Shown here piece by piece: positions 24,932 to 64,000 of a stretch of DNA of 64,000 bases. Numbering within the stretch: the stretch's first letter is position 1; each line of letters begins with the position of its first letter. Source of the stretch: Candidatus Eiseniibacteriota bacterium. GTDB lineage: Bacteria > Eisenbacteria > RBG-16-71-46. The position numbers and the translations under genes are program-made. Location of the stretch: positions 1 to 64,000 of the forward strand of contig JBGAOA010000016.1 of NCBI GenBank assembly GCA_044222065.1, given 5' to 3'. A model generated the notes under the pieces. The model did not search any database and was not told the origin of the DNA. It saw nothing but the letters and a program-made list of their open reading frames with translations.

Positions 24932-25093
24932 CGTTGCATCCCTCTGTTGCGGGTCAGGGGTGAACAGGATCGGCGGGGGTCAGCGTCGGTGTTCGGGCGA
25001 TGGCCTCCTTCGATAGCCCGATACAGGGCCGTCTGAGGCCGGCCCTGCGACGGATGACTTCGGGGGAAGTTGGAGACTTTTCGAGCCGCGAAC

Positions 25094-25122
25094 ATTCTAT
25101 CAGGGGACGCGCGCGGGTCCAA
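25094..25122 (-). promoter_or_regulatory. Sigma70-type promoter for the OB-fold gene
   Basis: TTGGAC-17 bp-TAGAAT. Confidence 0.65.
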
Positions 25123-25272
25123 CGAATTCCAAGACTACGAAGGGTTTGCAGGCGCGTATCCGGGCGGTCAACGGCGGCGCTGGAGCGCCACCGGGCCGTT
25201 CGGGACGGCCGGCGGCCAGGATCGTCCCGGCGCGGCGCGCGCGGAGCCGAACGCTCGGCCCCGCGGACGCCC

Positions 25273-26805: not shown

Positions 26806-26806
26806 C

Positions 26807-28879: not shown

Positions 28880-30045
28880 CACTGGCGCCTCTTGTAGCGG
28901 ATGACGCGCGCGCCGCCGGGGTCGGCGACGTAGCACAGCGAGTCGTCGGCCGCGACCGCGACCGGGCGCACGAGCGCGTCGCCCTCGGTGTTCACGATCT
29001 GCTGGTAGGTGCCGAAGGCGTCGAAGCGCAGGATGCGCTTGCTGCCGCTGTCGACGCTGTAGATGTAGCCGAGCGGATCGGCCGTCACGTCGACCGGACC
29101 CTCGAGCGCCGTGCCCGAGTCGTTGGCGTCGAACGCGATCTCGCCGGGAGAGACGCCCTGGTCGAACGTCTTCTTGATCTGGTTGTTCCCGAAGTCGCTG
29201 ACGTAGATCCGGTGGGCCCCGGAGGCGTTGCCCCAGAAGATGCCGCGCGGGTCGATCGCCGAGCCGCTGCCCGTACCCTGCGTGACCTGGAACGTCGTGT
29301 CGCGGTGCCACGTCCCGGCCGGAAGCACGGTGAGGTCGGTCTTGCCGTCGGGGCGCAGGCCGGGCGAGTACTTGAACACGCCGTACTCGAGCAGCTTCAC
29401 GCGCAGGCGCGGGTCTTCCTGATCCGGGATGAAGCGAATCCGCGATCCCGCGATGTACACGTTGTTCAGCTCGTCGGACGCGATGCCCGTCACGGTCGCG
29501 AGGCTCGTGTCGGTGAAGCTCACGACCGGATCGCCCGCGATGAGCAGGTAACCGCGCACCCACCAGTACAGCTCGAGGTGGCTGATCGCGTTCCTCCAGC
29601 CGCCCGTCGTGTCGTTGCACTGGCCCGTCACCGGGTTCTGGCGCGCGAGGCAGGAGTCGCCGAGGTCGAGCACCCAGAGCCGGTTGTTGCCGGAGGCGAT
29701 GCCGATCGGATTGAAGAGCCCGTTGAAGGGCCGCTGCGAGATCCGCTCGGGGCGCACGAGCAGGTACTCCCACACTTCGCCGCGCGGCGTCGTGCCCGCG
29801 CCGCCGTAGTTGAACACGAAGTAGAGCTGGTCGAGCTGGCCGCGCGGCACGAGCGCGAGGTCCACGACGCCGGGAAGGCTCGTCCAGGTCGCGAGCCGCT
29901 GATAGCTGCCGTCCGGCGGAATCGAGCGGTTGCGGTTCTCGGTCGGGAGCGGGAATTCCGAGCCGCAGCCCGCGAGCGACGCGAGCAGCGCGAACGCGCC
30001 GAGAGCGGCGGCGAGTCGGAGCCAGTGGCGCGGGGTCGTCGTCAT
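28879..30045 (-). CDS. Lipoprotein with NHL-like beta-propeller repeats
   Basis: Lipobox LAG-C; NPIGIA, DPRGI..IYVSDFGN, GPVDV..IYSVDSG..RI, RPVAVA..YVADPG. Confidence 0.8.
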   Translation of the reverse strand: MTTTPRHWLRLAAALGAFALLASLAGCGSEFPLPTENRNRSIPPDGSYQRLATWTSLPGVVDLALVPRGQLDQLYFVFNYGGAGTTPRGEVWEYLLVRPERISQRPFNGLFNPIGIASGNNRLWVLDLGDSCLARQNPVTGQCNDTTGGWRNAISHLELYWWVRGYLLIAGDPVVSFTDTSLATVTGIASDELNNVYIAGSRIRFIPDQEDPRLRVKLLEYGVFKYSPGLRPDGKTDLTVLPAGTWHRDTTFQVTQGTGSGSAIDPRGIFWGNASGAHRIYVSDFGNNQIKKTFDQGVSPGEIAFDANDSGTALEGPVDVTADPLGYIYSVDSGSKRILRFDAFGTYQQIVNTEGDALVRPVAVAADDSLCYVADPGGARVIRYKRRQ

Positions 30046-30052
30046 GCGGGGC

Positions 30053-31066
30053 TCAGAAGCGGATCCCGAGCGACACGCGGTTCACCGAACCGAGCGTCGA
30101 AGCGGTCGTGTAGGCGTAGTCCACGGTGGCCTTCGTCGTGCCGATCTCGGTGAAGAGTCCCGCGCCGGCCGAGAACTTGAGCGCGTCGGCGTTGAAGTTG
30201 TAGCCGCTCCTGAGCGCGAGCCGCTGGTGCCACGTCCACTCGAGTCCGGCCTTCGCGACCTGCGAGTTGTCCGCGGGCAGGTTGAACTCGAACGCCGACG
30301 TGAGCCGCTGGTTCGCGTTCTCGATCGGCTCGAACGCGACGCCGTAGCGGAACACGGTCGGCGGGTCGAAACCGTCGTAGCTGCGCACCTCGCCCGTGAT
30401 CGGCGAGACGAACTCGCCGCCGGGCTTGATCTCGGAGCCGAAGTTCGACAGCGCCACGGCGACGCGCACGCTGCCGAGCCCGAGGTAGTAGATGCCGCCG
30501 ACGTCGAGCATGACGGTGTTCGAGACCGGGCCGCCGATGTCGGAGCCGAGGTCCTCGCGCACGAACTTGAGGCCGGCGCCGACGAGCAGCTTGTCCGTCC
30601 AGCGCCGCGCGTAGGCCGCCCCGGCGACGAAGTCCGAATAGACGAACGAGCGGCCGGTGCCGTACGGCAGGAACTCGGTCGTCTCGTCGAGCTCGGTCGA
30701 GAGCGCGCCCGCCTGCAGCGCGACCGAGCCGCCGAGCCGCTTCACGGGCAGCACGTACGTGACGTGCTCGTAGTTCACGTCGCCCGGCCAGGACGCGTGC
30801 GAGATCGCGACCTCCTGCCGGAGCAGCGAACCGAGGCCGGCGGGATTCCAGTAGATCGCGCTCGGATCGTTCGCGACGGCGACGAACGACTCGCCGAGCG
30901 CCGTCGCTCGCGCACCGATGCCGATGCGCAGGAACGACGCCGAGGACGTGCCGGCGCGCTGGTCGCCGAGCGTGAACTGCGCGCGCGCGGGCGTGGCGGC
31001 GGCGCACGCGAGAGCGGTCGCGAACAGCGCGGCGGCGGCGCGGACGAAGCGGCGCTCAGAAGTCAT
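30053..31066 (-). CDS. PorV/PorQ-family (FadL-like) outer-membrane beta-barrel
   Basis: FLRIGIGARATALGE...DPSAIYWNPAGL N-terminal signature; ends SLGIRF. Confidence 0.85.
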   Translation of the reverse strand: MTSERRFVRAAAALFATALACAAATPARAQFTLGDQRAGTSSASFLRIGIGARATALGESFVAVANDPSAIYWNPAGLGSLLRQEVAISHASWPGDVNYEHVTYVLPVKRLGGSVALQAGALSTELDETTEFLPYGTGRSFVYSDFVAGAAYARRWTDKLLVGAGLKFVREDLGSDIGGPVSNTVMLDVGGIYYLGLGSVRVAVALSNFGSEIKPGGEFVSPITGEVRSYDGFDPPTVFRYGVAFEPIENANQRLTSAFEFNLPADNSQVAKAGLEWTWHQRLALRSGYNFNADALKFSAGAGLFTEIGTTKATVDYAYTTASTLGSVNRVSLGIRF

Positions 31067-33803
31067 AGTCGAGCGACATCCTCCACTGGGCGCCGGGGCC
31101 GTAGTTCGACGGATCGTCCACCTGGCTCTGGAGCGCGTAACGCCAGGCGCTGTCCGACACGTACTGGTCGCGCGAGTACTCGCCGACGCCCGCGATGCGG
31201 CCTTCGCCGGTCTGCCGGTCCACGCGGTTGATCAGGAAATTGTTGAAGACGTTCGTGCCCGCGAGGCTCAGGTCGAGCCGGCGGCCGCCCATGCGGAACC
31301 AGCGGTTCACCTTGAGATCGGCCGTGACCTGGAAGGGCGCGTTCTTCGAGTAGGGCTCGGCGGACTGGCCGAACGCGTTCGTCGCCGGCGTGAACGCGCG
31401 GCCCGACGTGCCCTGCACGAACAGGTTGAAGCCGGTCTGCTTCACGAAGCGCGGGCCCTTGTCGTCGAAGCGCACGTCGACGCTCGCGGACACCTTGTGC
31501 GGGCGGTTCCAGCGCACGAACGTCTCGCTCAGGCGCGTCTCGGACGCGTCGCCGCCGCCTTCCTGGATGACCTTCGCCTCGGCCGGATCGCTGCTCTTCC
31601 CCTTCGTCTGCTGGAACGTGTACGTGATCTTGCCGGACCAGTTGTGGCTGCGGCGCTTCTCGAGCTCGATCTCGATGCCCTTCGAGCGCGCGAAGTGGCC
31701 GTTCAGGTACACGAGCACGTCCGAGAGGTCGGTGCCCGACTGGCGCTTGAACGTCGTCGCGACCGGGTAGTCGTAGACGTCCTTCACGAACACGCTCGCG
31801 TTGATCGCCGCCTTCTCGAGGAACTGGTGGCGCGCGCCGACCTCGTAGTTCACCGACACCTGCGGGTTCAGGTTCGGGTTCCCGAGCAGCGGGAACGACT
31901 CGCTCGAGATCGACGTGAGCTTCGAGTACACGTAGCGGTACGACGGATTCTGCGTGTACTGCCCGTAGTTGAAGAAGAAGTTGCTGTTCTCGGTGATCGG
32001 GAACGAGACCGACACGCGCGGCGAGAACTTCACCTTGTAGCGGCGGCCGAAGAACGAGAACGTGTCGTTGAAGAACTGGTTGCGCGTGTCGACCGTGATG
32101 TTGTCGTTCGACGTGTCCGCGACCGCGCGCTCGGCCTCGCGCCCGAGGAACCAGTAATCCGCGCGCACGCCGAAGTTCGCGACGAAGCCCTCGAACTCGA
32201 GACGATCGCGGAGGTACAGGTCGCCGACCCACGGGCGCACCTTCCAGATGTCGTGCGAGCCGCCGAGGCCGTCGGTGTCGCCGACCCACGGGTCCTCGAT
32301 CGTGACGAACTGCACGTCCTGGAACTGGTGCTCGATGCCGAGTTCGAGCTCGTGCGGCTTGAAGCGCTGCACGTAGCCCCACTGCATGCCCCACGAGTTC
32401 GTGCGCCGGTCCTGCCACGTGTTGTCGTCGCCCGAGTCGAGGAAGTAGTCGCGCCACTTCGTCGAGTCCGCGAGACCCGGGTCGTACGGCTCTTCGTACT
32501 CGCTCCAATGCTTGCCGAGCACGTCCTGGCGCTGCGCGTAGTAGTAGCGGGAGATCTGGAAGTCGGTGTAGCCCGTGATGCCGAGCGTGCGGCGCCACTC
32601 GAAATTGAACTGGACGTTGTCCTCGAAGATCGTGTTCGCGTGGTCGATCCGGTGCGCCCAGATCCACGGGTAGGCCGGATCGCCGAGGTCGCCCGAGGCG
32701 TTGATGAACGTGCGGCTGAAGCCCTGGTCGATCGCGATGCTCTTGCGCGTCGTCAAGTTCCACTTGTCGGTCGAGTTCGGCTTCCACGTCAGGCCGAAGC
32801 GCGCGTCCCAGCGGTTGTCCTGCGAGGGCGCGATCCAGTCCGGGTACGTGAACTTCTCGCCGAAGAAGCTGTCTTCGTAGCTCGAGCGGAGCGGATCGCG
32901 CACCGGCGTGTCGAACACCGAGTTGAGCGCCTTCTGGTGATCCGTGCCGAGGTAGCTGAAGCGCGTCTCCGAGAACGTCCCGTTCACGTCGAGGATCGCG
33001 TTCACCTTGTGCCGCTTCGAGACCGGTCCGCCGGCGACGAGCTGGAACGCGCGTCCGCCGTAGGACCCGCCGGTCGTCGTGAGTCCGCCCTCGAACTTGT
33101 CGCTGCCTTCCTTGAGCTTGATCTCGACCACGCCCGAGAGCGCGTTTCCGTAACGCACGTCGAACGCGCCGGTCGCGACGTTCACCTCGGACACCGAGCG
33201 GGCGTTGAGCTGGCCGGCCGTGGACTGTCCGGTGACGAGGTCGCGGTTCGTGACGCCGTTCACGACGAAGATCGTTTCGTCGGCGCGCCCGCCGCGCACG
33301 TGGATCTGGTCCGCGTCCGTGCTGATGCCCGCCTGCTGCTGGAGCACGTCGCCGATCGTCTGCACCGGCAGGTTGCGGATCTCGTTCGCGTTGACGCTGC
33401 GGATCGTGGCGCTCTGCTTCACGTCCACGAGCCGGCGTTCCGCCGTGACCTGCACTTCCTTGACCTGCGTGACGACGATCTCGTTGAGCTGGAAGTTCAG
33501 GACCGTCGGCTTGCCCGGCGCAACGACGACACCGGCGCGCTCCTCGTTGGAGTAACCGAGGAACTGCACCCTCACGGTGTACGTACCGGCCGGAAGTCCC
33601 GGAATCAGGTACTGGCCTTCGGAGTCGGTCAGGCCACCCCGCTTTGCTTCCGGCACGTTGACGCTCGCGAACGGAATCGCGTGCCCCGTGCGCTTGTCCA
33701 TGACACGGCCCGAAATGGCGCCCTTGTCCTGCGCGTGAGCGGACAGGGCGAGCACGCAGCCGAGAAGCGTGAGGAGGATGAGAAGAGCCGAATTCCTGTG
33801 CAT
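31056..33803 (-). CDS. TonB-dependent receptor with N-terminal CarboxypepD_reg-like domain
   Basis: GAISGRV.D..TG..IPFA, plug IHVRGGRADE..VNG, GAFDVRYGNALSGVV, GNPNLNP, C-terminal DYDF. Confidence 0.92.
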   Translation of the reverse strand: MHRNSALLILLTLLGCVLALSAHAQDKGAISGRVMDKRTGHAIPFASVNVPEAKRGGLTDSEGQYLIPGLPAGTYTVRVQFLGYSNEERAGVVVAPGKPTVLNFQLNEIVVTQVKEVQVTAERRLVDVKQSATIRSVNANEIRNLPVQTIGDVLQQQAGISTDADQIHVRGGRADETIFVVNGVTNRDLVTGQSTAGQLNARSVSEVNVATGAFDVRYGNALSGVVEIKLKEGSDKFEGGLTTTGGSYGGRAFQLVAGGPVSKRHKVNAILDVNGTFSETRFSYLGTDHQKALNSVFDTPVRDPLRSSYEDSFFGEKFTYPDWIAPSQDNRWDARFGLTWKPNSTDKWNLTTRKSIAIDQGFSRTFINASGDLGDPAYPWIWAHRIDHANTIFEDNVQFNFEWRRTLGITGYTDFQISRYYYAQRQDVLGKHWSEYEEPYDPGLADSTKWRDYFLDSGDDNTWQDRRTNSWGMQWGYVQRFKPHELELGIEHQFQDVQFVTIEDPWVGDTDGLGGSHDIWKVRPWVGDLYLRDRLEFEGFVANFGVRADYWFLGREAERAVADTSNDNITVDTRNQFFNDTFSFFGRRYKVKFSPRVSVSFPITENSNFFFNYGQYTQNPSYRYVYSKLTSISSESFPLLGNPNLNPQVSVNYEVGARHQFLEKAAINASVFVKDVYDYPVATTFKRQSGTDLSDVLVYLNGHFARSKGIEIELEKRRSHNWSGKITYTFQQTKGKSSDPAEAKVIQEGGGDASETRLSETFVRWNRPHKVSASVDVRFDDKGPRFVKQTGFNLFVQGTSGRAFTPATNAFGQSAEPYSKNAPFQVTADLKVNRWFRMGGRRLDLSLAGTNVFNNFLINRVDRQTGEGRIAGVGEYSRDQYVSDSAWRYALQSQVDDPSNYGPGAQWRMSLDYDF

Positions 33804-52426: not shown

Positions 52427-54337
52427 TCAGCGCTTCGGACCGAGGATCTCGACCTTCTCGATCGCGTCGCCCTGCGTGAGGCGATGGACGACGTCCATGC
52501 CGCGCACGACGCGGGCGAAGATCGTGTAGCGGCCGTCGAGGTGCAGCTGCGGCGAGTGCGTGATGAACCACTGGCTGCCGCCCGTGTCCTTCCCCGACAG
52601 CGCCATCCCGACCTGCCCCGGCACGTAGTGGAGCGCGTTGTACTCGCACCGGATCGTGTAGCCCGGCCCGCCCGAGCCGGTGCCGGTGGGGTCGCCGTCC
52701 TGGATCACGAAGTTCGGCACGACGCGGTGGAACACGGTGCCGTCGAAGTAGCCGCGGCGCGCGAGCCGCACGAAGTTCTTCACGGTCTGCGGCGCCTCGG
52801 CGGCGTAGAACGCCCACTCGACGTCGCCGCGAGCGGTGTGGAGGACCGCGCCGGTCTCGCGCGGCTCGTCCGCGAAGTCCGCGCCGTACTCGGCCGCCGC
52901 GTTCGTCGCGGGGTGGGCGTGTTCGACGCTGTCGGCGACCGCGGTGCCGGCGAGGTCGCGCAGCGCGTCGCGGATCGAGATCCGCGCATCGGCGTCGGCG
53001 TCGGCGGCGCGCGCCGCGTACGCGGCGAGGAGCGCCGGCACGCTCGCCGTGTCGCGCAGCTCGGCAAGGCCCGCCGCGCACGACGCCACGTAGAGCACCG
53101 CCGTGTCGGCGAGCCCGGCGCGCAGCAGCGCGGCCGCGCCGCGTTCGTGCCGGGCGCCGAGCACCTCGGCCGCGGTCGCGCGTTCGAGCACGTGCTTGCC
53201 GCGCTTCGCGCGGTCGGCGATGAAGTCGCTCCAGTCGCGGCCCGCCGGGGCGTCGCGGAGCGCGTTCAGCATCGCGACGCGCACGTACGGCGAGGGATCG
53301 CCCCAGAGCCCGCGCGCGCGGTCGGCGCCGGAGTCCCCGGTGCGCACGAGCAGCGCGCGCCCGGCCGCTCCGCGCGTCGCGGGATCGGGATCCCCGGTTG
53401 CGCGCGCGAGCGAGTCCGCGAGCGCGGCGCGCGGCGCCTCCGCGAGCGGCGCCCAGGCGAAGCGGTCACCGAGCGCCACGGCCGCCGTCTGGCGCACGTA
53501 GGCGTGCGGATGACGGAGCTTCGCCACGAGACGCGGGGCGAGCGCGGCGTCCGAGGAGTCCGCGATGAGCTGGATCGCGCGGATCGCGTTCACGACCACG
53601 CCGACCTCGGCGTCGTCGAGCGCGCGGAGCAGCGCGGGAATCGCCGTGCGCGACTTCTGACGGCCGAGCGTGCGGGCGGCGTACGCGCGCACGAGCCACG
53701 GGCCGTCGCCGACGCGGCGGCTCACGACCGGTACGACCCGGTCGGGCACGACGAGCTTCTCGAGCGCATAGAGCACGCGCCAGCGCACTTCGGGATCGGG
53801 ATCGTCGTGGCGCGCGAGCAGGGCGCCGAGCGCCGTTGTGTCGGCGAGCCGCCACAGCGCGACCGCGGCCTCGCCGCGCAGCCGCGCGGAGCCGCTCCCG
53901 AGCGCGCGCACGACCGCGGGCGTGGCGGCGGGGTCGGCGAGCTTGCCGAGCGCCTCGATCGCGAGCGCCTGCGCGTCCGCATCCCGCCCGGCGAAGGCGC
54001 CCTCGAGCGCGGGGCGCGCCGAGCGGTGCCCCGTCTGGCCGAGCGCGAAGATCGCCTCGTGGCGCACGCCGGCGTCGGCGTCGGCGAGCGCGGCGACGAG
54101 CTGCGGCACGCGCGTCGAGTCCTGGAGCCGGCCGATCGCGAGCGCCGCGCGGCGGCGCACGGCCGGCGACGGGTCGCGCAGCGAGCGCTCGAGCACGCCC
54201 TCGGGATCGGCGCGGCGATCCTCGGCGATCGCGATCGCGCGCAGGGTCTCGCGCGGCGGCGAGGCCGGCGCCGCGGCGGCCTGCGCACTCAGCGCGCAGG
54301 CGATCGCCCAGAGGGCGAGCGCCGCGCGCGGATCAGG
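52427..54337 (-). CDS. HEAT-repeat protein with C-terminal cyclophilin-type PPIase; start unresolved
   Basis: Repeated D....VR..A..ALG; FHRVVPNFVIQDGDP, GMALSGKDTGGSQWFITHSPQLHLDGRYTIF. Confidence 0.88.
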   Translation of the reverse strand, partial: PDPRAALALWAIACALSAQAAAAPASPPRETLRAIAIAEDRRADPEGVLERSLRDPSPAVRRRAALAIGRLQDSTRVPQLVAALADADAGVRHEAIFALGQTGHRSARPALEGAFAGRDADAQALAIEALGKLADPAATPAVVRALGSGSARLRGEAAVALWRLADTTALGALLARHDDPDPEVRWRVLYALEKLVVPDRVVPVVSRRVGDGPWLVRAYAARTLGRQKSRTAIPALLRALDDAEVGVVVNAIRAIQLIADSSDAALAPRLVAKLRHPHAYVRQTAAVALGDRFAWAPLAEAPRAALADSLARATGDPDPATRGAAGRALLVRTGDSGADRARGLWGDPSPYVRVAMLNALRDAPAGRDWSDFIADRAKRGKHVLERATAAEVLGARHERGAAALLRAGLADTAVLYVASCAAGLAELRDTASVPALLAAYAARAADADADARISIRDALRDLAGTAVADSVEHAHPATNAAAEYGADFADEPRETGAVLHTARGDVEWAFYAAEAPQTVKNFVRLARRGYFDGTVFHRVVPNFVIQDGDPTGTGSGGPGYTIRCEYNALHYVPGQVGMALSGKDTGGSQWFITHSPQLHLDGRYTIFARVVRGMDVVHRLTQGDAIEKVEILGPKR

Positions 54338-57300
54338 GCGTGACGGTCTGCGTGTCGTCCACGAAGCGGCGCGGCTTGCGCAGCTTGACGAGCCGGCCTT
54401 CGTAGACGGCGGAACTAGACGCGTTCTTCGCGACGAGCCGGTAGAGGTAGATGCCGTTCGCAAGGGTGGATCCTTCCGCGTCGCGTCCGTCCCACTCGAT
54501 CTGCTGGTAGGACGGCGTGAGTCCCAGGAGCTTGCGCTCGTAGACGCGCCGCCCGGACACGGTGAAGACGCGGATCTGGAGATCCACGGGCGTCGCGCTC
54601 TCGAGCGTGAACGAGAAACGGGTGCCGAGATCGTCTTCGAACGGATTCGGGAACGCCAGCGGGTTCACGATCCGCAGTTCCGCCCCCGTCACGTTGATCT
54701 GGAAGCGGTGCACGCGCGTCGCGCCGTTGCGCGCGCGCAGCTCGACGGGCATCTCGCCGAAGGCGTACGGCGCGTGGTCCCACGACAGCGTCCACTCGCG
54801 CCGGCTCGTGTCGCCGTTCGCGGGCGTCGGGACGAACCCCTGCAGGGCGCCGCCAACGCGCAGTTCGAGGTCGGTCGCGGGATCGAGCGGCTTCGGCGAC
54901 AGCACGAGCATCGTCATCGCGGCGGTCGGCGGGATCACGTCGAGGTCGTTGACGATCGTGCCGTTCGCGAACAGCGCGGTCTCGAAGCGGAACGGGATCT
55001 CGAACGGATTCGCGACGCCGTAGCGGTCCACGGTGCGGAGCACGTAGCGGTAGTCGTCGGCGCGCAGCGTGTCGCCGTACGTCAGGCGGTAACGGCGGCC
55101 GCCGCGGCTCGCGAAGCTCGTGTCGCCGAACGACGGCGTCACCGAGTACTTCGACGGCGGAATCGTCGTGATCGCCGAGTTCGGACCGAGCTGCTGGAGC
55201 GTGAGCGAGTCGAGGCGCACGTTCGACATCACGTCGGCGACGAGCGCGAGCGTGTCGCCGCCCTGGCGCAGCCGCACGACCTGCCCGGACGTGACGTCCT
55301 GGCCATTCACGGTGACGAGGCCCTGCGGAAGTCCGATGGAGAGCTGCGTCGCGGGATCGCCGAGCAGCGTGTACGACACGCCGACGTCGGCCTCGTAGGC
55401 GCTGTTGCGCGTGAACTGCCAGTTGCGGATCAGGGTCTGCGTGAGGATCTCGCCGATTCGCGCGGTCGCGCCGGAATCCCCGGCGGCCGCGTCGCGCGGC
55501 GGCTCGGCGAACATCGTCTTCGCGAGCGTGACGTTCAGGTGCGTCGTGCTGTTGAGCGGCAGCACCTCGTAGCCGGCCGAGGCCCACGAGGCGACCGCGC
55601 CGCGGCGATTGCCGAGGTCCACGAGCATCGCCCCCACGCAGTCGCCGTTCTTGCGGTTCGAATTCTCGGCCTCGTGGGCGAACGCGTTCGGGTGGCACGA
55701 GAACGCCGAGAAGAAGAAGGGCCTGCCGTCGTTGAGGAGCAGGTTGTAGTCCGTGCCGCGCTGGACGCCGTTGCTGCGCCAGAACTCCTCGTGAGCGAGG
55801 ACGTACTCGTTCGCGTGACCCTGGTAGTTCACCCACAGCTTGCCCGCGTTGACGCGCTGCACCAGCTCGGGCAGCGCCGTGAGCCGCGCGCGCGACTGCG
55901 TGTTCGTCAGGCTGCAGCGGCACGTGTCCGGGGTCTGGGGGCAGGGCGTGATGTCGGCCGTGTTGTTCGGAAGGTAGTAGCTGAGGTTGAACACCTCGAG
56001 GTCGGCGGTCGACAGCCCGGCGGAGTCGAGGACCGCGGACTTCACGCGCTCGTTCAGCAACCGGAAGACGTCCTCGTAGTCCTTGCGGCAGTAGTTGCTC
56101 GTGCCGGGGTTGACGCCGAACGTCGAGAGCGTCGAATAGGCGTCGTCCGAGATGAGCGTCATGCCGCGGCGCCACGTCTCGCCCGCGAAGCTCTCGTAGG
56201 CGACGAGCTTGTCCACGACCGCGTCGAGCACCGCGACCGTGTTCGCCGGCAAGCGGCCGACGTGCAGGTCCGGAAGCCGGGGCGCGAGTTCCGGCTGCGA
56301 GCAGTTGAGACACCACCCGAGCCAGTTGTCGCTCGAAATCGCTTCGAGGAACGATCCCGAAGTCGTGCTCGCGAGCACCGGCCCCATGATGCGCTGAGTC
56401 GGAACGAAGTCGCGGCTCGACGTGGGATCCACCGGCCGCGGGTCGATGCTGCCGTCGCCGAGCAGCAGGACGTAGCGCGTGTCCCAGCGGTTGTACGCGT
56501 AGCGGAAGAAGCGCTTGAGTGCGTAGGCGCTCTTGCGGCCCCCGTTGAACTCGTCGTAGATCGCGTCCACGGGTGCGCGCAGCACGCGCATGCCCTGCGA
56601 CTCGCGCAGTTGCGCCAGCTCCTCGGCGGCCGCGAGGAAGTTCGCCGGGCCGACGAGCAGGTAGTCCGCGCCGCTCGATCCGTAGAGCCCCGCGCGCGTC
56701 ACGGCCGAGTACGCGGACGCGGGCGGAGACTTCGGAGCGTCGAACACGACGTAGTCGCGTCGCTCGCCGAGCGCGGTCGAGTCCTGCAGCCGCAGCCGGA
56801 AGCCCGACACCGTGGACTCCTTCACGACGCCGGAGAGCCGCACGGGATTCCCGGGGCTCGTGACGTCGTAGACCCGCAGCGTGGTCGAGTCGGCAAAGCC
56901 GTCGCTCGCGAGTTCGAACGCGCCGGACACGTCGGCGCTGTTGCAGGCGAGGTAGCCGGCGATCGGCGCGTACGTGCGCCAGTACGTCACGTCGAAGTAG
57001 TTGAGCGCCGCGAGCGCGTTCGCGTTCGTGGTCGGATCGGGCGGCGCGGTGAACGCCTTGCCCCACACGCGCAGGCGGTTCGTGCGGCCCTCGCTCAGCG
57101 CCGATCCGAACAAGGTTGCGTTGCTCACCAACTCGGTGCGCCCCGCGAAGCCGGCCGAATCCGTCACCGAGGTGTAGGCGCCGGAGGCGTTCTTCACCTG
57201 CGCCCACATCCAGTGCGTGCCGCTGCTGCGTCCCTGGTAGGCGGTCGCGAACGAGACGGCGTGCGTCGTGTCGATGTGGTCGGTCGCGAACAGCAGCGTC

Positions 57301-58580
57301 TCGGGACGCGAGTAGTAGAGCGTCTGGTCGGTCCAGTGGAACGCGTCGTTGAGCGTGTCGGCGAAGGCCGTGCCCGCGTTGTTGTACCAGTAGTCCTTCT
57401 CGAAGTGGATCGCGGCCGGATACGAGGGCGGCGAGAAGAGCCCCACGCCGTCTCGCCAGCCGGAACGCGTCGACACGCGAAGTCCGGCGCCGCCCGCGAG
57501 GCGCGTCACGTACACGACCTCGGCGTCGCCCCAGGCTCGCTGCGGACGCGAGGCGTCGGCGCGCTGCGCCCAGTTCTGGCTCCAGACGAGGATGCGGTCG
57601 CCCGAGTCGAACACGCCGTTCGCGTTCCAGTCCTGCAGCTCGATCGGCAGCTCGATCGTCACGTACGGCACCTGCACGTCCTCGACGAACTCGTGGCGGT
57701 GCACCGAGACCTCGGCGTTCGGCACGCCGGCCGGGTAGCCGGCGGCGGCGAGCGCGTCGAAGTCGAGCGCGTAGACCGCGGTCGAGTCGAGCTTCACGCG
57801 CACTTCCGGCTGGTTCTCGTCGAACGCGGTGACGGCGTTCGGCGAAGCGCCCGCGAGCTTGCGGCCGAGCGCGGGCCGGGCGGCGAGCGGCGGAGCGGCC
57901 TCGCGCCAGCGGCGGCCCTCGCTCGCGTTCGCGAGCACGTTGTTCCAGATCGGATCCCACGAGCGGTCCTCGGGCGCCGCGGAGAGTGAGCGCGTCGAGC
58001 CGCCCGAGAACGACACGCGCACCTTGAGCGCGCGGCGCACGTAGAGCCTTCCGCTCGCGGCGTCGTAGCGGTACGGATAGACCTGCAGGCCGACGAGCCG
58101 CTGGCGGCGCACCGAGAACGGCGTGCTCAGGTCCACCGGCGCCGCGGGCCACACGCCGTCGCGGATCGCCTCGGCCGGTTCGTTGTACGGCTGGAGGTCG
58201 CCGGTCTGGTCGCTCTCACGGAACACGGGCCGCGGCACGATCGAGAGCGCGACGCCTTCGAACGCCTGCTCGCCGCCGTCCTCGACGACGCTCGCGCTGA
58301 CGCGCGCGCCGGGCGGCACGGCGATGAGAGCGCTCGCGAACGGCAGCGCGGGGCGCGAGGGAATCGCGGTCGCCTCGAAGTCGCCGATCGGGAGCTTCTG
58401 GACACCCGCGCCCGGCGCGGGCTGGAATTCGGCCGGGTCGAGCTGGAACAGCACGCCGCTGGCGTCGCTCTGAAGGACGCGCAGGCCGCCCGCGCGAGCG
58501 ACGGTCGGGACGCAGGTCGACGCCGAGACGAGAGCGGCGGCGATGAGAACGAGTCGGAGGTGTGGCGACGGAATTCGCAT
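54333..58580 (-). CDS. Large C25 (gingipain) peptidase, PorU sortase-like, with FlgD/T9SS-like CTD
   Basis: Signal peptide; propeptide-like region; ADYLLV, IYDEFNGG, YVLLLGDGS, VGRLP, NYQGH (His), FSCH (Cys), YTLLGDPA; CTD FPNPF...WDGRDAEG..LANGIYLYRL. Confidence 0.85.
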   Translation of the reverse strand: MRIPSPHLRLVLIAAALVSASTCVPTVARAGGLRVLQSDASGVLFQLDPAEFQPAPGAGVQKLPIGDFEATAIPSRPALPFASALIAVPPGARVSASVVEDGGEQAFEGVALSIVPRPVFRESDQTGDLQPYNEPAEAIRDGVWPAAPVDLSTPFSVRRQRLVGLQVYPYRYDAASGRLYVRRALKVRVSFSGGSTRSLSAAPEDRSWDPIWNNVLANASEGRRWREAAPPLAARPALGRKLAGASPNAVTAFDENQPEVRVKLDSTAVYALDFDALAAAGYPAGVPNAEVSVHRHEFVEDVQVPYVTIELPIELQDWNANGVFDSGDRILVWSQNWAQRADASRPQRAWGDAEVVYVTRLAGGAGLRVSTRSGWRDGVGLFSPPSYPAAIHFEKDYWYNNAGTAFADTLNDAFHWTDQTLYYSRPETLLFATDHIDTTHAVSFATAYQGRSSGTHWMWAQVKNASGAYTSVTDSAGFAGRTELVSNATLFGSALSEGRTNRLRVWGKAFTAPPDPTTNANALAALNYFDVTYWRTYAPIAGYLACNSADVSGAFELASDGFADSTTLRVYDVTSPGNPVRLSGVVKESTVSGFRLRLQDSTALGERRDYVVFDAPKSPPASAYSAVTRAGLYGSSGADYLLVGPANFLAAAEELAQLRESQGMRVLRAPVDAIYDEFNGGRKSAYALKRFFRYAYNRWDTRYVLLLGDGSIDPRPVDPTSSRDFVPTQRIMGPVLASTTSGSFLEAISSDNWLGWCLNCSQPELAPRLPDLHVGRLPANTVAVLDAVVDKLVAYESFAGETWRRGMTLISDDAYSTLSTFGVNPGTSNYCRKDYEDVFRLLNERVKSAVLDSAGLSTADLEVFNLSYYLPNNTADITPCPQTPDTCRCSLTNTQSRARLTALPELVQRVNAGKLWVNYQGHANEYVLAHEEFWRSNGVQRGTDYNLLLNDGRPFFFSAFSCHPNAFAHEAENSNRKNGDCVGAMLVDLGNRRGAVASWASAGYEVLPLNSTTHLNVTLAKTMFAEPPRDAAAGDSGATARIGEILTQTLIRNWQFTRNSAYEADVGVSYTLLGDPATQLSIGLPQGLVTVNGQDVTSGQVVRLRQGGDTLALVADVMSNVRLDSLTLQQLGPNSAITTIPPSKYSVTPSFGDTSFASRGGRRYRLTYGDTLRADDYRYVLRTVDRYGVANPFEIPFRFETALFANGTIVNDLDVIPPTAAMTMLVLSPKPLDPATDLELRVGGALQGFVPTPANGDTSRREWTLSWDHAPYAFGEMPVELRARNGATRVHRFQINVTGAELRIVNPLAFPNPFEDDLGTRFSFTLESATPVDLQIRVFTVSGRRVYERKLLGLTPSYQQIEWDGRDAEGSTLANGIYLYRLVAKNASSSAVYEGRLVKLRKPRRFVDDTQTVTP

Positions 58581-58675: not shown

Positions 58676-60112
58676 GTGGGTACTCGAAGCCGATCGGTGT
58701 TGAGCCCGGCCCCGGGCTCCTCGTGCGTTCTGTGGGCCGTCCTCGTCGCGCTGCTCGCCCTGCCGCTCGTCGCGGGAGCGAAGCCGCGGACACGCCCGCC
58801 GGGGGCCGCGGCACTGCCCGAGAGCGTGCTGGCCCGGGTCGGCGCCGGCCGCGTCGTCACGGCGGCCGATTTCGAGCGCGCCTGGGGCGAACTGGCCCCT
58901 CCCGTCCGGCCCGACAGCCTTACCCCGGCCAGCGCGGCCGGGTTCTTGGAATTGCTGATCGGCAAGGAGTGCCTGGCCGAGCGGGCGATGTCCGAGCGCT
59001 GGGTCTGGACGGCGCAGGAGAGCCTGCAGCACGCCGGGATCAGGGACCGCCTGCCGCTCCAGGCGGCGCTCGATTCGGCGCTCGCGGACCTGCGGCGGCG
59101 GATCGGGCCGGCCGCGGACTCGGCGAGCGACGAGGCGCTCGGTCCCGCCCTCCGCGACACGTTCTTCGCGCGCCGGCCGCTGACTTTCGATGAGGCGCTC
59201 GTCGCGCGGGTGACGCAGAAGTTCCGCGACCTGCCGCGGCCGCGGCCGGACTCGGGCGTCATGGCCCAGATCCGCGTGCTCGGCCTCGTGCCCGCGGTCG
59301 AGCCGGGCGACCGGCCGCGCTCGCTCGCGCACGGCGCCGAGGGCGACTTCACCGTCGGCGAACTGCTCGACTCGTGGGCCCGGCTCAATCCGCTCAACCG
59401 CCCGCGCATCGAGGCCGAGTCGCAGGTGCTCGACCTCGTGCGCAACGCGATCCTCGAGCGCCGGCTGCGCGCCGACGCCCGGTCGCGCGGGCTCGTCGCG
59501 CGGCCCGACATCGCGGCGCGCATCGCGAGCGACTCGGAGTACGTCGCGGTGCAGCACCTCGTCGCCCGCGAGGTGTACGCGAAGATCGCCGACGACGAAG
59601 CGACGCTGCGCCGGCACTTCGAGCGCAACGCCGAGTTCTGGCGGCTCCCCACGTTCGTGCAGGTCGTCGAGCTCGTGCTGCCGAACCGCGCGTCGGCGTC
59701 GGCGCTGTACGCCGAGCTGAGCGATCCCGCGCGCGCGGAGACGCTCGTCGTGCGCGCGCAGCGGCAGGGCGCGCGCTATCGGCGGCTGCTCGCGGCCGAA
59801 AGCGACTCGGCGCACTTCACGCGCTGCCTCGGCACGCGCCCCGGCACCGTGCTCGGGCCCGACTCGACGCGGCTCGGGTGGCGCGTGACCCGTGTCGAGG
59901 AGGTGCTGCCGTCACGGCTGCGGCGCTACGACGAGGTCGAACGACTCGTGCGCCAGCACTACTACGGCGAGGAGGGCGAGCGGCGGATGGTGGACCTGAT
60001 GGCGAGCGTGCGGAAGACGACTCCGGTCACGATCCACCGGGCGGCCCTCGAGCGGCTGGCTGTGCGTCCCGGCGGCGGGCACTCGCCGCGCGGAGGTTTT
60101 TCAAGCCCGTGA
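58676..60112 (+). CDS. SurA/PrsA-like exported chaperone with a degenerate parvulin domain
   Basis: GGAGA plus GTG; signal peptide; VLARVG...VTA.DF, GDFTVGE, VLGP...GW.V.RVEE....R.YDEV. Confidence 0.65.
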   Translation: MGTRSRSVLSPAPGSSCVLWAVLVALLALPLVAGAKPRTRPPGAAALPESVLARVGAGRVVTAADFERAWGELAPPVRPDSLTPASAAGFLELLIGKECLAERAMSERWVWTAQESLQHAGIRDRLPLQAALDSALADLRRRIGPAADSASDEALGPALRDTFFARRPLTFDEALVARVTQKFRDLPRPRPDSGVMAQIRVLGLVPAVEPGDRPRSLAHGAEGDFTVGELLDSWARLNPLNRPRIEAESQVLDLVRNAILERRLRADARSRGLVARPDIAARIASDSEYVAVQHLVAREVYAKIADDEATLRRHFERNAEFWRLPTFVQVVELVLPNRASASALYAELSDPARAETLVVRAQRQGARYRRLLAAESDSAHFTRCLGTRPGTVLGPDSTRLGWRVTRVEEVLPSRLRRYDEVERLVRQHYYGEEGERRMVDLMASVRKTTPVTIHRAALERLAVRPGGGHSPRGGFSSP

Positions 60113-60214: not shown

Positions 60215-61954
60215 ATGATCCCCCGTCGTGCCTTCGCGCCCCTGCGGCCGGCGCTCGTGATCGGCGCCCTGTTGCTCGCGATGTCGAACCCCGGCCACGC
60301 GGCGGCCGCGGACGCTCCGGCGCGCGTGTTCCTGCCGGACACCGCGATCATCGCGTTCGTGGGCGACAAGCCGATCGTGGCGCGCGAGTTCACGGACCTC
60401 TACGAGTCCTCCTACCCCGAAGGGAAGCCGCGCTCCGATTCGCTCGGCAGAGTGCAGTTCATGAACTCGATCGTGAGCAAGGTGTTGCTCGCGAACGCCG
60501 CGCGAGAGGCGAATCGGCCGCTCACGTTCGAAGATCGCGCGACGCTCAAGGAGTACTCGAACACCGTCTACGCGAATCGGCTCTACAGTCTTGCGGTCGC
60601 GGATTCGGTAAACGTCACAGAGGAGGAGGCACGCGCGCTCTGGGACTGTTACAAGTCGCGCTACCGCCTGCGACGGATCCTCTTCGCCCGATTGAACGAT
60701 GCTCAGCGCGTTCGAAAGGAACTGATGACGGGCCGACTGGGCTTCGCGCTCGCCTCCAAGACCTATGGCGTCGGCGAGGAGACGGTCCGAGACGGCGACA
60801 TGGGTTGGTACGACTGCGGGCGCCTGGGGTTCGGCCTCGCCCCTCTGATCATGGGGCTGCGCCCCGGGCAGTACTCCGACTTGAACCGCTCGGACCGCGG
60901 TTACGAACTCTTCCAGCTCATGGACCGCACCGCAGCCGAGCCGCCCGCGTACGAGGGAATTCGTACGTACATCCTGGGCCAGGTTCGCGAACTGCGCGCC
61001 GCGAGGCGCGCCGAGGCAATGCAGCTCGAAGTCGCCGATCGCATCCACCTGAAGCCGGACAGCGTCAACATCGCCTTCGCGGCGCCTCACTTCCCCGTGG
61101 CCTCGAGCTCGGGCGCCCGCGGCGACCTCAACATCGACACGTCCGTGCCAGCGTTCTCGCCGGACGAGATGGCACGCACGCTCGCCACGTACGACGGGGG
61201 CAAGCTCACGCTCGGCGACTTCGTTCACTCGTACTCCGAGTTGACGCCGATGATTCGCCCGACCGTGAACGACTACTGGCTGCTCCGGAACGCAGTAATC
61301 GCGTCGGCCACGAGCCGTTTCATGCCCGAGCTGGCCATCGCCCGCGGCATCGACAAGGACCCGGGAGTCCAGACGTCGATCAGCCGGCGAACGGAAGAGA
61401 TCATGGTCGAGCACCTGTATGCGGACTCGGTGGAGTCCAAGATCTGGGTCAACCCCGAAACGCGGCGTGAGTTCTATGAGAAGAGCAAGCGGAAGCTCGT
61501 AACGTTCGAAGTCGCGAACTACGGGATCATCGCTCGCGACACCCGCGCGCAGGCGGATTCCCTCGCGGCCGAGCTCAAGCGCGGGCTCAGTTTCCGTGCG
61601 GCGTTGGAGCGTGACTCGCTGCTCGGTCGCCAGCTCGGTTCGATCAAGCAGGTGCGCGAGGATCAGCCGGGAGACGCGATGTACAAGCTCGTCTTCGAGT
61701 CCATGAAAGAAGGCAACGTCGACATCGCCGGCCCGGGACGGGACGGCACTTACTTCGTCGTCCAATGCCTTGAGCGCGTACCGGGACGGCAGCTCTCGTA
61801 CGAGGAGTCCGAGAGCATCGTGGACGAGGCGCTGCAGAACGAGCAGGCGGAAGTGCTGCTGGCGGAATTCATGGGCCGGCTGCGGAGCCGGTGGCCCGTG
61901 AGCATTCTCTACGACCGACTCATGCACATCCGCCTGATTCAGGAAGCGCCCTGA
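60215..61954 (+). CDS. SurA/PpiD-like exported chaperone with two parvulin-like domains
   Basis: Signal peptide; LRRIL...GF..ASKTY...GDMGW...LRPGQYS...GYELF; second copy GLSF..AL..DS...MKEG...GP. Confidence 0.72.
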   Translation: MIPRRAFAPLRPALVIGALLLAMSNPGHAAAADAPARVFLPDTAIIAFVGDKPIVAREFTDLYESSYPEGKPRSDSLGRVQFMNSIVSKVLLANAAREANRPLTFEDRATLKEYSNTVYANRLYSLAVADSVNVTEEEARALWDCYKSRYRLRRILFARLNDAQRVRKELMTGRLGFALASKTYGVGEETVRDGDMGWYDCGRLGFGLAPLIMGLRPGQYSDLNRSDRGYELFQLMDRTAAEPPAYEGIRTYILGQVRELRAARRAEAMQLEVADRIHLKPDSVNIAFAAPHFPVASSSGARGDLNIDTSVPAFSPDEMARTLATYDGGKLTLGDFVHSYSELTPMIRPTVNDYWLLRNAVIASATSRFMPELAIARGIDKDPGVQTSISRRTEEIMVEHLYADSVESKIWVNPETRREFYEKSKRKLVTFEVANYGIIARDTRAQADSLAAELKRGLSFRAALERDSLLGRQLGSIKQVREDQPGDAMYKLVFESMKEGNVDIAGPGRDGTYFVVQCLERVPGRQLSYEESESIVDEALQNEQAEVLLAEFMGRLRSRWPVSILYDRLMHIRLIQEAP

Positions 61955-62011: not shown

Positions 62012-62812
62012 TCAGCGCTTTGGTGGGGTCCAGCGTCGAACGGCGCCGATCTCCCGATAGGTCGCACACGCTTCGCCGTCCCCGGTGCCGCGCACGACGA
62101 AGCGGGAGCCGCGCTTCGTGAACACTTCATCCTTGCGGCCGAAGGCGACCGACCCCTGCTCGAGCTCGACGCACAGGGGCGCCGCGCACGAGGCGCCGAG
62201 TGCGGGCCTCGGGACGAGCAGCCGTGCGAAGACGTAGCGTTGCCCCGCGCGCACGGTCGCCGCGAGGACGCTCGGGACCGCGTACACGATTCGCGTCGTG
62301 CCGCCCTCACGTTGGGAACGATAGCGCAGGCCGCCCATGCCGCCCGTCTCCCACAGCCGCGGAAGACCGGTTGAATCCGGATTGAGTTGCGCGCGCAGTC
62401 CCCCGTAGCCCGTGCGCTGCTCGAATCGCCAGTGCGGAGCCAGGGTGTCCCCCATCGCAGGCCAGAAGCGGATCGTCACACTGCCTCCGACGACCTGCGC
62501 GGAATCACGCCCCGGATCGAAGCAGACGTACAACGTGTCGAGGGCGGTCGAATCGCACGACGGCGCGATCCGCTCCCGAGAGCCGGCCACGCCAAACGGA
62601 GCATTCCACGTGAGGAAGAAGCGGGGTTCGCCCCGAGCGGCCGTCTCCTCCGGGACCCACCGGTCCGGCGGACCGTCGGCTCGCGGCGAATCGGGGCGCC
62701 CCAGCAGCGCCAGCGCCACGACAAAGAATCCGAGTCGAATGCGGAGTGGGCAGCCGGAACGCGCCTGACGTGTGAGCTTCATCGGACGATTATCCCCGAC
62801 CGCCGCACTCAT
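62012..62812 (-). CDS. Secreted Cys-containing hypothetical protein, divergent paralogue of the two upstream genes
   Basis: ATGA overlap; FLTW..P, C....TLYVCF.P, SC..PLCV; start at 62812 or 62782. Confidence 0.65.
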   Translation of the reverse strand: MSAAVGDNRPMKLTRQARSGCPLRIRLGFFVVALALLGRPDSPRADGPPDRWVPEETAARGEPRFFLTWNAPFGVAGSRERIAPSCDSTALDTLYVCFDPGRDSAQVVGGSVTIRFWPAMGDTLAPHWRFEQRTGYGGLRAQLNPDSTGLPRLWETGGMGGLRYRSQREGGTTRIVYAVPSVLAATVRAGQRYVFARLLVPRPALGASCAAPLCVELEQGSVAFGRKDEVFTKRGSRFVVRGTGDGEACATYREIGAVRRWTPPKR

Positions 62813-63618
62813 CGGTAGAGGCTCTTGATTCCGCCCCAGCTCGTGCGCCGCGCGGGCACAAGCGCGCAGTCAGCGCCCGCACCGCCGCGCCAGGTCGCGC
62901 GGTTCCCCTCGACGCCGCCAGGCGAGACGATCAGAAGATCGCCTCCGGGTGATCCAGGAAGGCGGCGGATCAGGATCGAATTCAGGACGAGACAGGCGGG
63001 CGCGAGACAACCTTCGCACGTCGGAGAGATGGATGTGTGAAGCGTTCCGAGCAGCAGTCTCAGGCCGTAGTAGAGCGAGGACTGCGACAACGTCGCAGGC
63101 GTCGAACTCGGCACCGCGGCCACGGCCTTGATGCGGAGCTGGCTCGTGCTGTTGCGCGGTTCGCCGTAGACATAGCCCTGCACTTCCGCCGCGCCCGCGC
63201 CGGACCATGGATCCGCGCACGCCCCTCCGGAACTGAAGTCGGAGCTCGCCGTCAGTTGCCCCGATCGGCACTCACTGCTTACCGACAAACGCCACCAGTC
63301 CGGAATCGCCGGCAGCGCGTGCTGAACGTCCACGACGCACTCGATGCCGATTACGTCGGCGCCGGTGTCGCTCGGAGGACGGAACGAAACGAACAGCGGC
63401 AGGATCGGAATGTCCGAGTCGCACTGGAACGTCTGGTCGTGCGATGCCGCCAGGTCGAGCGGGCAATCCCACCATGTGAGCCAGAGCTCCTGCGCCGCAT
63501 TCGCGCCACGCGCACCGAACGCAAGCGCTGCAAGCAAGCTCAGGCACAAGAAAACGAAGGGACGCCTGCCGCGGTGGGCAAGGCGTCCCGGTCGTCTCGA
63601 AACGTACGACGATGTCAG
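62809..63618 (-). CDS. Secreted Cys-rich protein ending in WGGIKSLYR; start uncertain (CTG 63618 or TTG 63549)
   Basis: Signal peptide; LWLTWWDC, IPDWW, CADPW, YYGLRL, CEGCLAPACLVLNSI, VPARRTSWGGIKSLYR. Confidence 0.75.
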   Translation of the reverse strand: MTSSYVSRRPGRLAHRGRRPFVFLCLSLLAALAFGARGANAAQELWLTWWDCPLDLAASHDQTFQCDSDIPILPLFVSFRPPSDTGADVIGIECVVDVQHALPAIPDWWRLSVSSECRSGQLTASSDFSSGGACADPWSGAGAAEVQGYVYGEPRNSTSQLRIKAVAAVPSSTPATLSQSSLYYGLRLLLGTLHTSISPTCEGCLAPACLVLNSILIRRLPGSPGGDLLIVSPGGVEGNRATWRGGAGADCALVPARRTSWGGIKSLYR

Positions 63619-64000
63619 CGGTACAGCCCCTTGATCTGGCCCCACGTCGCGCGACGAGTGGGAACGAGCGCGCAGGTCGGACCGCCTGGTCCACCCTGCC
63701 AGGTGCAGATCGAGCTGCCGCCAGCCTGTGCATCCGTCACGTCCACGTTGCCTCGCACGGCGCCGAGCGGCTGGACCAGACGGATCTGATTGAGCACCAG
63801 ACACACGGGAGTGGCGCAGCCAGCGCAGGCGCCCGTTCCGACGGTCTTGGTGTTGAGGAAGTTCAGCTTGAAGCCGTAGTAGTGCGTGTTGGGATCGATC
63901 TGCGTGCGGCTGGCGGTCGGAACGGCGAGCACGACCTTGATGCGTTCCCAGCGCAGCGAATCCGCAATGGAACCGACCGTCTGCTGCGTTCCGGGGAACG
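63615..64000 (-). CDS. 3' part of a paralogous Cys-rich protein ending in WGQIKGLYR
   Basis: YYGFKL, CAGCATPVCLVLNQI, VPTRRATWGQIKGLYR; the frame continues to the window edge. Confidence 0.75.
   Translation of the reverse strand, partial: FPGTQQTVGSIADSLRWERIKVVLAVPTASRTQIDPNTHYYGFKLNFLNTKTVGTGACAGCATPVCLVLNQIRLVQPLGAVRGNVDVTDAQAGGSSICTWQGGPGGPTCALVPTRRATWGQIKGLYR

Follow-up and report, generated by a model that had tools for sequence, protein, structure and literature searches.

A 16-residue C-terminal tag in Eisenbacteria and Krumholzibacteriota: a candidate sorting signal linked to a second PorU paralogue

Genes at the locus

The window analysed here is the whole 64,000-nucleotide stretch at positions 1 to 64,000 of contig JBGAOA010000016.1, from a Candidatus Eiseniibacteriota bacterium (assembly GCA_044222065.1; 4.21 Mb, 131 contigs, 94% complete; host genome, G000). 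Near its end, two neighbouring minus-strand open reading frames (ORFs) finish in the similar tails CALVPARRTSWGGIKSLYR and CALVPTRRATWGQIKGLYR, directly before stop codons at 62809-62811 and 63615-63617. The subject of this report is the C-terminal tag shared by these tails, together with PorU-b, a second paralogue of PorU, a type IX secretion system (T9SS) sortase, encoded in the same window.

The two tails were identical at 14 of 19 residues and the bodies at 31%, in agreement with the sequence-only reading, which had described tails more conserved than bodies and had cautioned, correctly for this pair, that its two examples were paralogues. The tag in its motif, VPxRRx(S/T)WGxIKxLYR, was real, but 'VP' proved merely one variant. 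The consensus of the conserved unit, about 16 residues long, was x-[TVI]-[PAG]-[TAVN]-x-x-[ST]-[ST]-[WF]-G-x-[VIL]-K-x-L-[YF]-R. The following features were annotated in the window:

62812..62859, minus strand: tag copy 1, VPARRTSWGGIKSLYR, from ORF reading and the genome pattern search; putative cut between Val (62857-62859) and Pro (62854-62856), with the register taken from the linker motif of T9SS C-terminal domains (CTDs)
63618..63665, minus strand: tag copy 2, VPTRRATWGQIKGLYR, lying apart from the folded domain; its final 8 residues modelled as helical at a predicted local distance difference test score (pLDDT) of about 60
62809..63582, minus strand: tagged protein T21, with signal-like N-terminus, body of the cohesin-like family and tag; start codon uncertain, no ATG lying close to the signal-like stretch
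63615..64000, minus strand: tagged protein T22, 258 amino acids, with signal peptide, cohesin-like beta-sandwich and tag; the gene continues to contig position 64391
62012..62812, minus strand: untagged member of the cohesin-like family, 266 amino acids, closing the cluster (family hidden Markov model E 1e-11); present in 8/10 loci of the host's family
54333..58580, minus strand: PorU-b, candidate enzyme for the tag, with C25 propeptide, PorU-like N-terminal part, Peptidase_C25 (55341-56663) and FlgD-type CTD (54420-54626), by profile and homology matches
55695..55817, minus strand: codons of the PorU-b catalytic dyad, His 55815-55817 and Cys 55695-55697, invariant in 52/52 aligned homologues
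58697..60112, plus strand: exported PPIC-type peptidyl-prolyl isomerase (PPIase)-like protein between PorU-b and the tagged cluster (Rotamase_2 E 2.8e-5, under the cut-off); in 10/10 loci of the host's family
60215..61954, plus strand: second exported PPIase (Rotamase/Rotamase_2 domain matches)

A third paralogue lay beyond T22, at the contig end. Several homologues of the untagged 62012-62812 protein finished in a basic W-x-P tail instead of the tag; this member is possibly a terminator or a differently anchored subunit.

The tag in the host genome

The pattern [ST]WG.[ILVM]K had 45 matches in the six-frame translation of the host genome. Every one of the 45 fell 4-5 residues short of a stop codon, a zone that contains about 2% of positions. 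One match was found in the reversed translation used as control, and the reversed pattern had no matches across genomes; a chance origin of the tag was thus ruled out. The regular expression proposed in the sequence-only reading returned 42 stop-closed segments. With a position matrix one Phe variant was added, giving 46 tagged proteins, and a few degenerate matches were excluded. Of four odd cases, at G000 C5:3265-3660, C52:1-891, C61:30485-30574 and C69:46104-46865, three were degenerate tags away from any stop and one was a tagged ORF lacking a signal peptide in frame; these are possibly frameshifts or decaying genes.

Once the tails had been removed, the bodies of the 46 tagged proteins sorted into 33 clusters with blastp and 28 with phmmer. 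The tag accordingly sat on roughly 30 unrelated families, and an artefact of one family was ruled out. The window pair was part of a 10-member family among the tagged proteins. Bodies recognised among the 41 of 46 proteins scanned included NHL propellers, choice-of-anchor C, V and X, GEVED, DUF4114, cupredoxin and PPC domains. Cohesin-like clusters broke off at contig ends (G000 C38 end at 65476, C25 end, C15 start) and the tails of T10 and T16 were identical, which suggests assembly collapse of repeats. The cohesin-like family scored poorly under the genome's own codon model.

Signal peptides were called with a lenient heuristic of our own, not SignalP, on genes from our own gene caller. The heuristic was satisfied by 34/37 tagged, 159/199 CTD-bearing and 718/2243 other soluble proteins, so that equal frequency of the tag in cytoplasmic proteins, which had been named as a refutation, was not observed. 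When starts were picked by hand, 39 of the 40 full-length tagged proteins had an N-terminal Sec signal peptide by this heuristic, and in other genomes 65 of 82 tagged ORFs had a signal-like start within the 400 codons fetched. All 40 full-length tagged proteins were at most 340 amino acids long; the median of 200 called CTD proteins was 632. A hydrophobicity scan found no transmembrane stretch in the tails, as the sequence-only reading had stated, and a later hydrophobic stretch in 1 of 40 tagged proteins. The net charge of the tag was basic in the host (+3.5) and acidic in Krumholzibacteriota.

Profile searches with the CTD models TIGR04183, PF18962 and PF13860 gave no match on whole tagged proteins or tails, and PF07589 matched no tagged gene. 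Neither NCBIfam nor Pfam yielded a model for the tail in searches with 41 of 46 tagged proteins and, at E up to 10, with six tails of 30 residues; the HMMER filters may miss a motif so short.

Tag, CTD and PEP-CTERM on homologous bodies

A FlgD-type T9SS CTD closed 212 proteins of the host genome, and none of these carried the tag. Eight tagged proteins had homologues in the same genome that bore a CTD at the same junction, in line with the earlier suggestion that the tag may be an alternative to the CTD. Of the 120 homologues compared for one choice-of-anchor C body, the tag closed 57, a PEP-CTERM-type tail (by regular expression) closed 34, and 29 were left unclassified by the expression; the latter were read by eye as tag variants, PEP-CTERM tails that the expression had missed, three dockerin-like ends and one CTD-like end. 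These comparisons of sequence support the tag as a modular C-terminal signal standing in place of a T9SS CTD or PEP-CTERM.

Distribution across genomes

For the distribution a strict back-translated tag ending in a stop was used. It occurred in 134/151 Ca. Eisenbacteria and 88/101 Krumholzibacteriota genomes. A scan of all species gave at least 120 matches, those listed being from Eisenbacteria (38), Krumholzibacteriota (8), 'Fibrobacterota' (16), 'Latescibacterota' (2), unnamed records (50) and others (6). Bacteroidota were not among the matches listed, looser variants in other phyla not having been searched. The placeable 'Fibrobacter' and 'Latescibacteria' records fell in the Krumholzibacteriota sample. 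Among genomes labelled as outside the two phyla, three had one tag match each and no PorU-b match. Three genomes labelled Verrucomicrobiia (L063, G256), Limnocylindria (L129, G259) and Udaeobacter (L099, G281) had an Eisenbacteria-like PorU-b, and two of them had 17 tags each; these labels are probably wrong.

An exosortase was found in 98/151 genomes of the host phylum, including genomes without strict tags. The exosortase/EpsI/PrsK/PrsR locus of the host (L159, G000:C95:6679-13749; L160:838-1140) contained what is apparently the single PEP-CTERM substrate in the genome.

PorU-b and the T9SS machinery

The sequence-only reading had placed a PorU-like transpeptidase about 4 kb from the tags. 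The distance to the nearer tail was about 4.2 kb, but the gene is the second paralogue and not the canonical porU. Against NF033707 (PorU), PorU-b scored 234.3, below the cut-off of 420, and the genome's canonical copy 469. The score of PorU-b against NF052324 (NCBIfam 'PorU2') was 72 for a cut-off of 450, so it is not PorU2. Its best PDB match was 6za2 (E 2e-60). A quick tree built from 46 catalytic domains put the 24 PorU-b rows and the 21 PorU rows into separate clades, each spanning both phyla, with a Shimodaira-Hasegawa-like approximate likelihood ratio (SH-aLRT) support of 98. By these sequence criteria PorU-b is an ancient second PorU paralogue. It was detected in 124/151 Eisenbacteria and 92/101 Krumholzibacteriota genomes.

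The host T9SS also included SprA (530 bits) and three PorV-family proteins over the cut-off. The canonical PorU gene adjoined a PorV-family gene, and two further PorV-family genes lay elsewhere in the genome. SprA was present in 60/61 genomes of the host phylum, and canonical PorU, with a PorV-family gene next to it, was near-universal (100/101). GldM and GldN were not detected in the host genome or in the sample of its own phylum; their absence is not established, the host genome being 94% complete and every control genome having stayed below the cut-off. The host T9SS may be without the Bacteroidota motor or may have a very diverged one. CTD classes differ in their PorV-like shuttles, and cognate genes cluster, according to the available text of PMC10202324; one more class, handled in its own way, is therefore plausible.

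Two operons (window 22844-33701, minus strand; G000:C84:2605-9556) combined a TonB-dependent receptor-like gene, a PorV-family barrel and exported proteins with PorU/PorZ-like CTDs, and possibly encode cargo-specific shuttles. Downstream of canonical porU-porV (L156:12290-17360; L162, G000:C77) were an M6-like protease with a CTD, two unannotated exported proteins, a 1078-amino-acid protein weakly matching SprA, and a BamA-like gene. These are candidates for further T9SS parts.

Linkage of tagged genes to PorU-b

Forty Krumholzibacteriota PorU-b loci were picked, non-randomly, from 92 by score and contig room. Thirty-six of the 40 contained 1-7 tagged genes, with 90/91 tagged genes upstream of PorU-b and 91/91 on its strand; chance expectation was 2.6-7.5 of 40 loci. 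With the same regular expression, no tagged genes were found at 20 canonical PorU loci from those genomes, and all 20 of these had a PorV-family gene. In the host's family, tagged genes were upstream of PorU-b on the same strand at 10/10 loci, with the two PPIase genes in between. The proposed tie of the tags to the nearby PorU-like gene was thus conserved. The PPIase genes had no tblastn match in the 40 Krumholzibacteriota loci.

A gene with immunoglobulin-like (Ig-like) and dockerin-like repeats led the cluster in 35/40 and 9/20 loci. These leaders (e.g., L183:13886-14554; L213:5682-6353; G000 C122:4470-6207, C23:9779-10693, C25:5351-5968) were mostly untagged and ended in Cys or Cys-Pro; one of the host's own paralogues was tagged. 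In five loci, mostly of family f4 (L193:7420-8352, L196-L198), the PorU-b neighbour replacing the tagged cluster resembled by eye what we take to be a UbiA-type prenyltransferase. In 4/4 RNA runs, short contigs covered parts of the locus including T22 and were uninformative on expression level, strand and co-transcription.

Fold of the tagged proteins

AlphaFold2 models of T22 (pLDDT 87.7) and a Krumholzibacteriota neighbour of PorU-b (85.8) were beta-sandwiches with the tag outside the domain. In fold searches, the top 5 rows for T22 were cohesins (best 2vo8, Z 9.2, root-mean-square deviation 3.1, 130 aligned), as were the top 19 rows for the Krumholzibacteriota model (Z 12.6, root-mean-square deviation 2.5, 119 aligned). 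Gram-positive pilin domains came after the cohesins in both lists (Z 7-8). For T22, Foldseek gave only weak mixed matches. No sequence homology was detected between host-family and Krumholzibacteriota operon bodies (hhalign probability 0.2), and in these models they are linked by fold only; a cluster of 89 members contained the tails and so is no proof of one body family. The Pfam model Dockerin_1 reached E 0.076 on one paralogue, under the cut-off, the dockerin-like repeats having been recognised by eye.

The tag end was a low-confidence terminal helix in both models (pLDDT about 60-70). Its hydrophobic moment was 0.47 at 100 degrees, compared with 0.37 ± 0.025 for shuffled tags. The amphipathic helix of the sequence-only reading is weakly favoured by these values, but the moment was as high at 170 degrees (0.49).

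A cleavage-like site before the tag

An unsupervised motif from 162 CTD linkers, [TLPN]-[VLTA]-[GDA]-[VA]-[PE], was slid over the sequence before the tag and gave a single peak, at offset -8 from the tag Trp. The mean score at this offset was -5.6 for the host's own tags (shuffled, -9.1 ± 0.4) and -2.5 for other genomes (shuffled, -9.7 ± 0.25), exceeding all 300 shuffles in both sets. The register points to a putative cut after [TVI] at -7 that would free 15 residues. PorU cleavage in Prevotella is given as PT/GI in the available text of PMC11969387, and the site pattern in that of PMC4560394 is X/(GSA)(VLI), including EPT/ATE of HBP35. PTATE was read in some Krumholzibacteriota tags. At +1, the 91 Krumholzibacteriota operon tags had Ala (46), Pro (19) or Gly (15), among others.

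Proposed mechanism and alternatives

The reading that we favour, at somewhat better than even odds and by analogy with PorU, is that the tag is a second, minimal T9SS-linked sorting signal processed by PorU-b. Tagged proteins would be exported by Sec through their signal peptides and would then pass the SprA translocon, the terminal [WF]GxxKxL[YF]R being recognised by a putative receptor; this is the least certain step. PorU-b, which is likely at the cell surface because it bears a CTD itself, would cut after [TVI] at -7 and join the C-terminus so formed to an amine acceptor, in the manner of PorU and CTD cargo, which would anchor the protein on the cell surface. The founding cargo may have been the cohesin-fold proteins encoded with PorU-b and the dockerin-like protein, many other small domains having gained the tag later.

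Several results weigh against this reading. The CTD motifs B and D were absent from the tag. The host's own tags had Pro at +1 in 30/44 cases, compared with 8/162 CTD linkers and a published preference for G/S/A, and a score above 0 at the peak in 2/46, absolute scores being mostly negative; a different enzyme, or no cut, would fit this. A PorV-family gene was found in 0/80 PorU-b loci, so that the tag has no linked shuttle. In other Eisenbacteria families the tag occurred at 11/30 PorU-b loci (9 upstream on the same strand), 4 of the 30 being truncated. The tag-rich genomes G001 (19 tags), G056, G088 and G102 had no PorU-b match at threshold, and some PorU-b genomes had no strict-pattern tag. 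The loci are probably one inherited operon and are therefore not independent, but one old association kept in two phyla, and the linkage may tie PorU-b to cohesins rather than to the tag.

Processing of the tag by PorU-b was weighed against five other explanations. The tag might remain uncut and act as a short amphipathic docking helix, held non-covalently on the membrane, a scaffold, the cohesin-like proteins or PorU-b. This explanation is unlikely, although it ranks highest among the five. The W/F, I/V, L, Y/F and K/R positions are conserved, the moment exceeds shuffles, both models have a helix, and Pro stands behind the putative scissile bond, a residue that impedes many proteases in that place. 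It leaves unexplained the cleavage-like motif in fixed register and the invariant catalytic dyad of the linked enzyme, and simple lipid binding is disfavoured because tag charge varies between the host and Krumholzibacteriota. Next in rank, and also unlikely, is a minimal CTD read by the canonical PorV/PorU, with PorU-b next to the tagged cohesins on other grounds, for example with these as its structural partners. Such a signal would fit the exchange of tag and CTD at one junction with a similar linker and the near-universal pair of canonical PorU and PorV-family genes, and the CTDs of 40-55 amino acids in Prevotella (available text of PMC11969387) indicate that shrinkage is possible. The predicted helix without beta-strand motifs B, D and E, and a +1 Pro unlike canonical sites, speak against it, and the linkage contrast between PorU-b loci (36/40) and canonical PorU loci (0/20) is left unexplained.

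An improbable alternative is that PorU-b is a polymerising transpeptidase, like a class C sortase, that builds covalent filaments or a coat from tagged cohesin-fold subunits, the other tagged proteins contributing minor subunits. The operon is pilus-like, in that one dockerin-like gene and 1-7 beta-sandwich paralogues accompany a dedicated sortase and the housekeeping sortase lies elsewhere. Pilin domains were the next fold matches, and one Lys was present in 31/47 family members. The best fold is nevertheless cohesin, not pilin, and no internal Lys was conserved in the Krumholzibacteriota family consensus. Very improbable is a tail for periplasmic retention or for recognition by a chaperone or protease, unrelated to outer-membrane export: motor genes and a dedicated shuttle were not found and two PPIase genes lie in the locus of the host's family, but the bodies are typical surface domains that elsewhere carry a CTD or PEP-CTERM, and the PPIase genes had no tblastn match in the 40 Krumholzibacteriota loci. 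Least probable of all, and largely refuted, is a degenerate PEP-CTERM handled by the genome's exosortase. VPxxxSTW loosely resembles VPEPSTW, the same bodies bear PEP-CTERM elsewhere and an exosortase is present; the tag, however, has no transmembrane helix. The exosortase was ruled out as tag reader by its own PEP-CTERM protein and PrsK/PrsR and by a mismatch in distribution, not being found in tag-rich family f2 (0/6), genus g4 (0/9) and G001.

Processing by PorU-b could form part of a wider arrangement, which is put forward tentatively and at well under even odds. In this arrangement Eisenbacteria and Krumholzibacteriota would display proteins through two channels on a type IX translocon that lacks a recognisable GldLM/KN motor. 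The housekeeping PorU would serve about 200 CTD proteins, and PorU-b would read the 16-residue helical tag and covalently anchor or polymerise the cohesin-fold subunits of a scaffold, along with dozens of small domains as accessories. If so, no shorter signal for outer-membrane export and attachment would be known, and a diderm would possibly have a covalent filament assembled by a C25 enzyme.

If the tag is processed by PorU-b, it would be a new class of bacterial sorting signal with its enzyme, common to two widespread uncultured phyla, and thousands of 'hypothetical' proteins could be annotated as surface cargo. The minimum size of a T9SS-linked signal and the division of substrates between sortase paralogues become testable. 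Together, a tag of 16 residues and an orthogonal transpeptidase could make a useful tool for ligation or display.

Comparison with known systems

No published description of the tag was found in the literature searched, most subscription papers and supplements being outside its coverage. The tag resembles a sortase-read C-terminal T9SS signal, yet it fits no CTD class and none of the tripartite signals. Like the T9SS type A CTD (TIGR04183/PF18962; FlgD_ig-like PF13860 in these phyla), it lies at the extreme C-terminus of Sec-signal proteins, has no transmembrane helix and co-occurs with SprA, PorV-family proteins and PorU. Tag and CTD are interchangeable on the same bodies and appear to share the register of a cleavage-like linker. 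The tag differs in its length (16 residues, compared with 40-55 for short CTDs, as in Prevotella intermedia in the available text of PMC11969387, and 70-80 for long CTDs), in its predicted helix without B/D motifs in place of a beta-sheet, in Pro or Ala at +1, in its small-protein cargo and in its linkage to a second sortase.

As with the tripartite signals of the PEP-CTERM/exosortase and LPXTG/sortase systems, a short motif recurs on many unrelated surface domains (choice-of-anchor C, V, X), and some substrates have a dedicated transpeptidase encoded next to them. Dedicated sortase-substrate operons are known for class B and C sortases. Unlike these signals, the tag has no transmembrane helix or basic cluster, the C25 enzyme linked to it bears a T9SS CTD itself, and its distribution does not follow that of the exosortase.

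PorU-b shares with PorU (T9SS sortase; NF033707, PDB 6za2) the domain order, the C25 His/Cys dyad and a CTD of its own, but it falls in a separate clade, has no adjacent porV and adjoins tagged cohesin-fold genes. The tagged operon proteins share the cohesin fold with non-cellulosomal cohesin modules (PDB 2vo8, 2xdh) and, as in cohesin-dockerin systems, a gene with dockerin-like repeats lies upstream. In contrast to those systems, single-cohesin proteins here outnumber dockerin-like ones and have no Pfam cohesin match, and the pairing of the two is putative.

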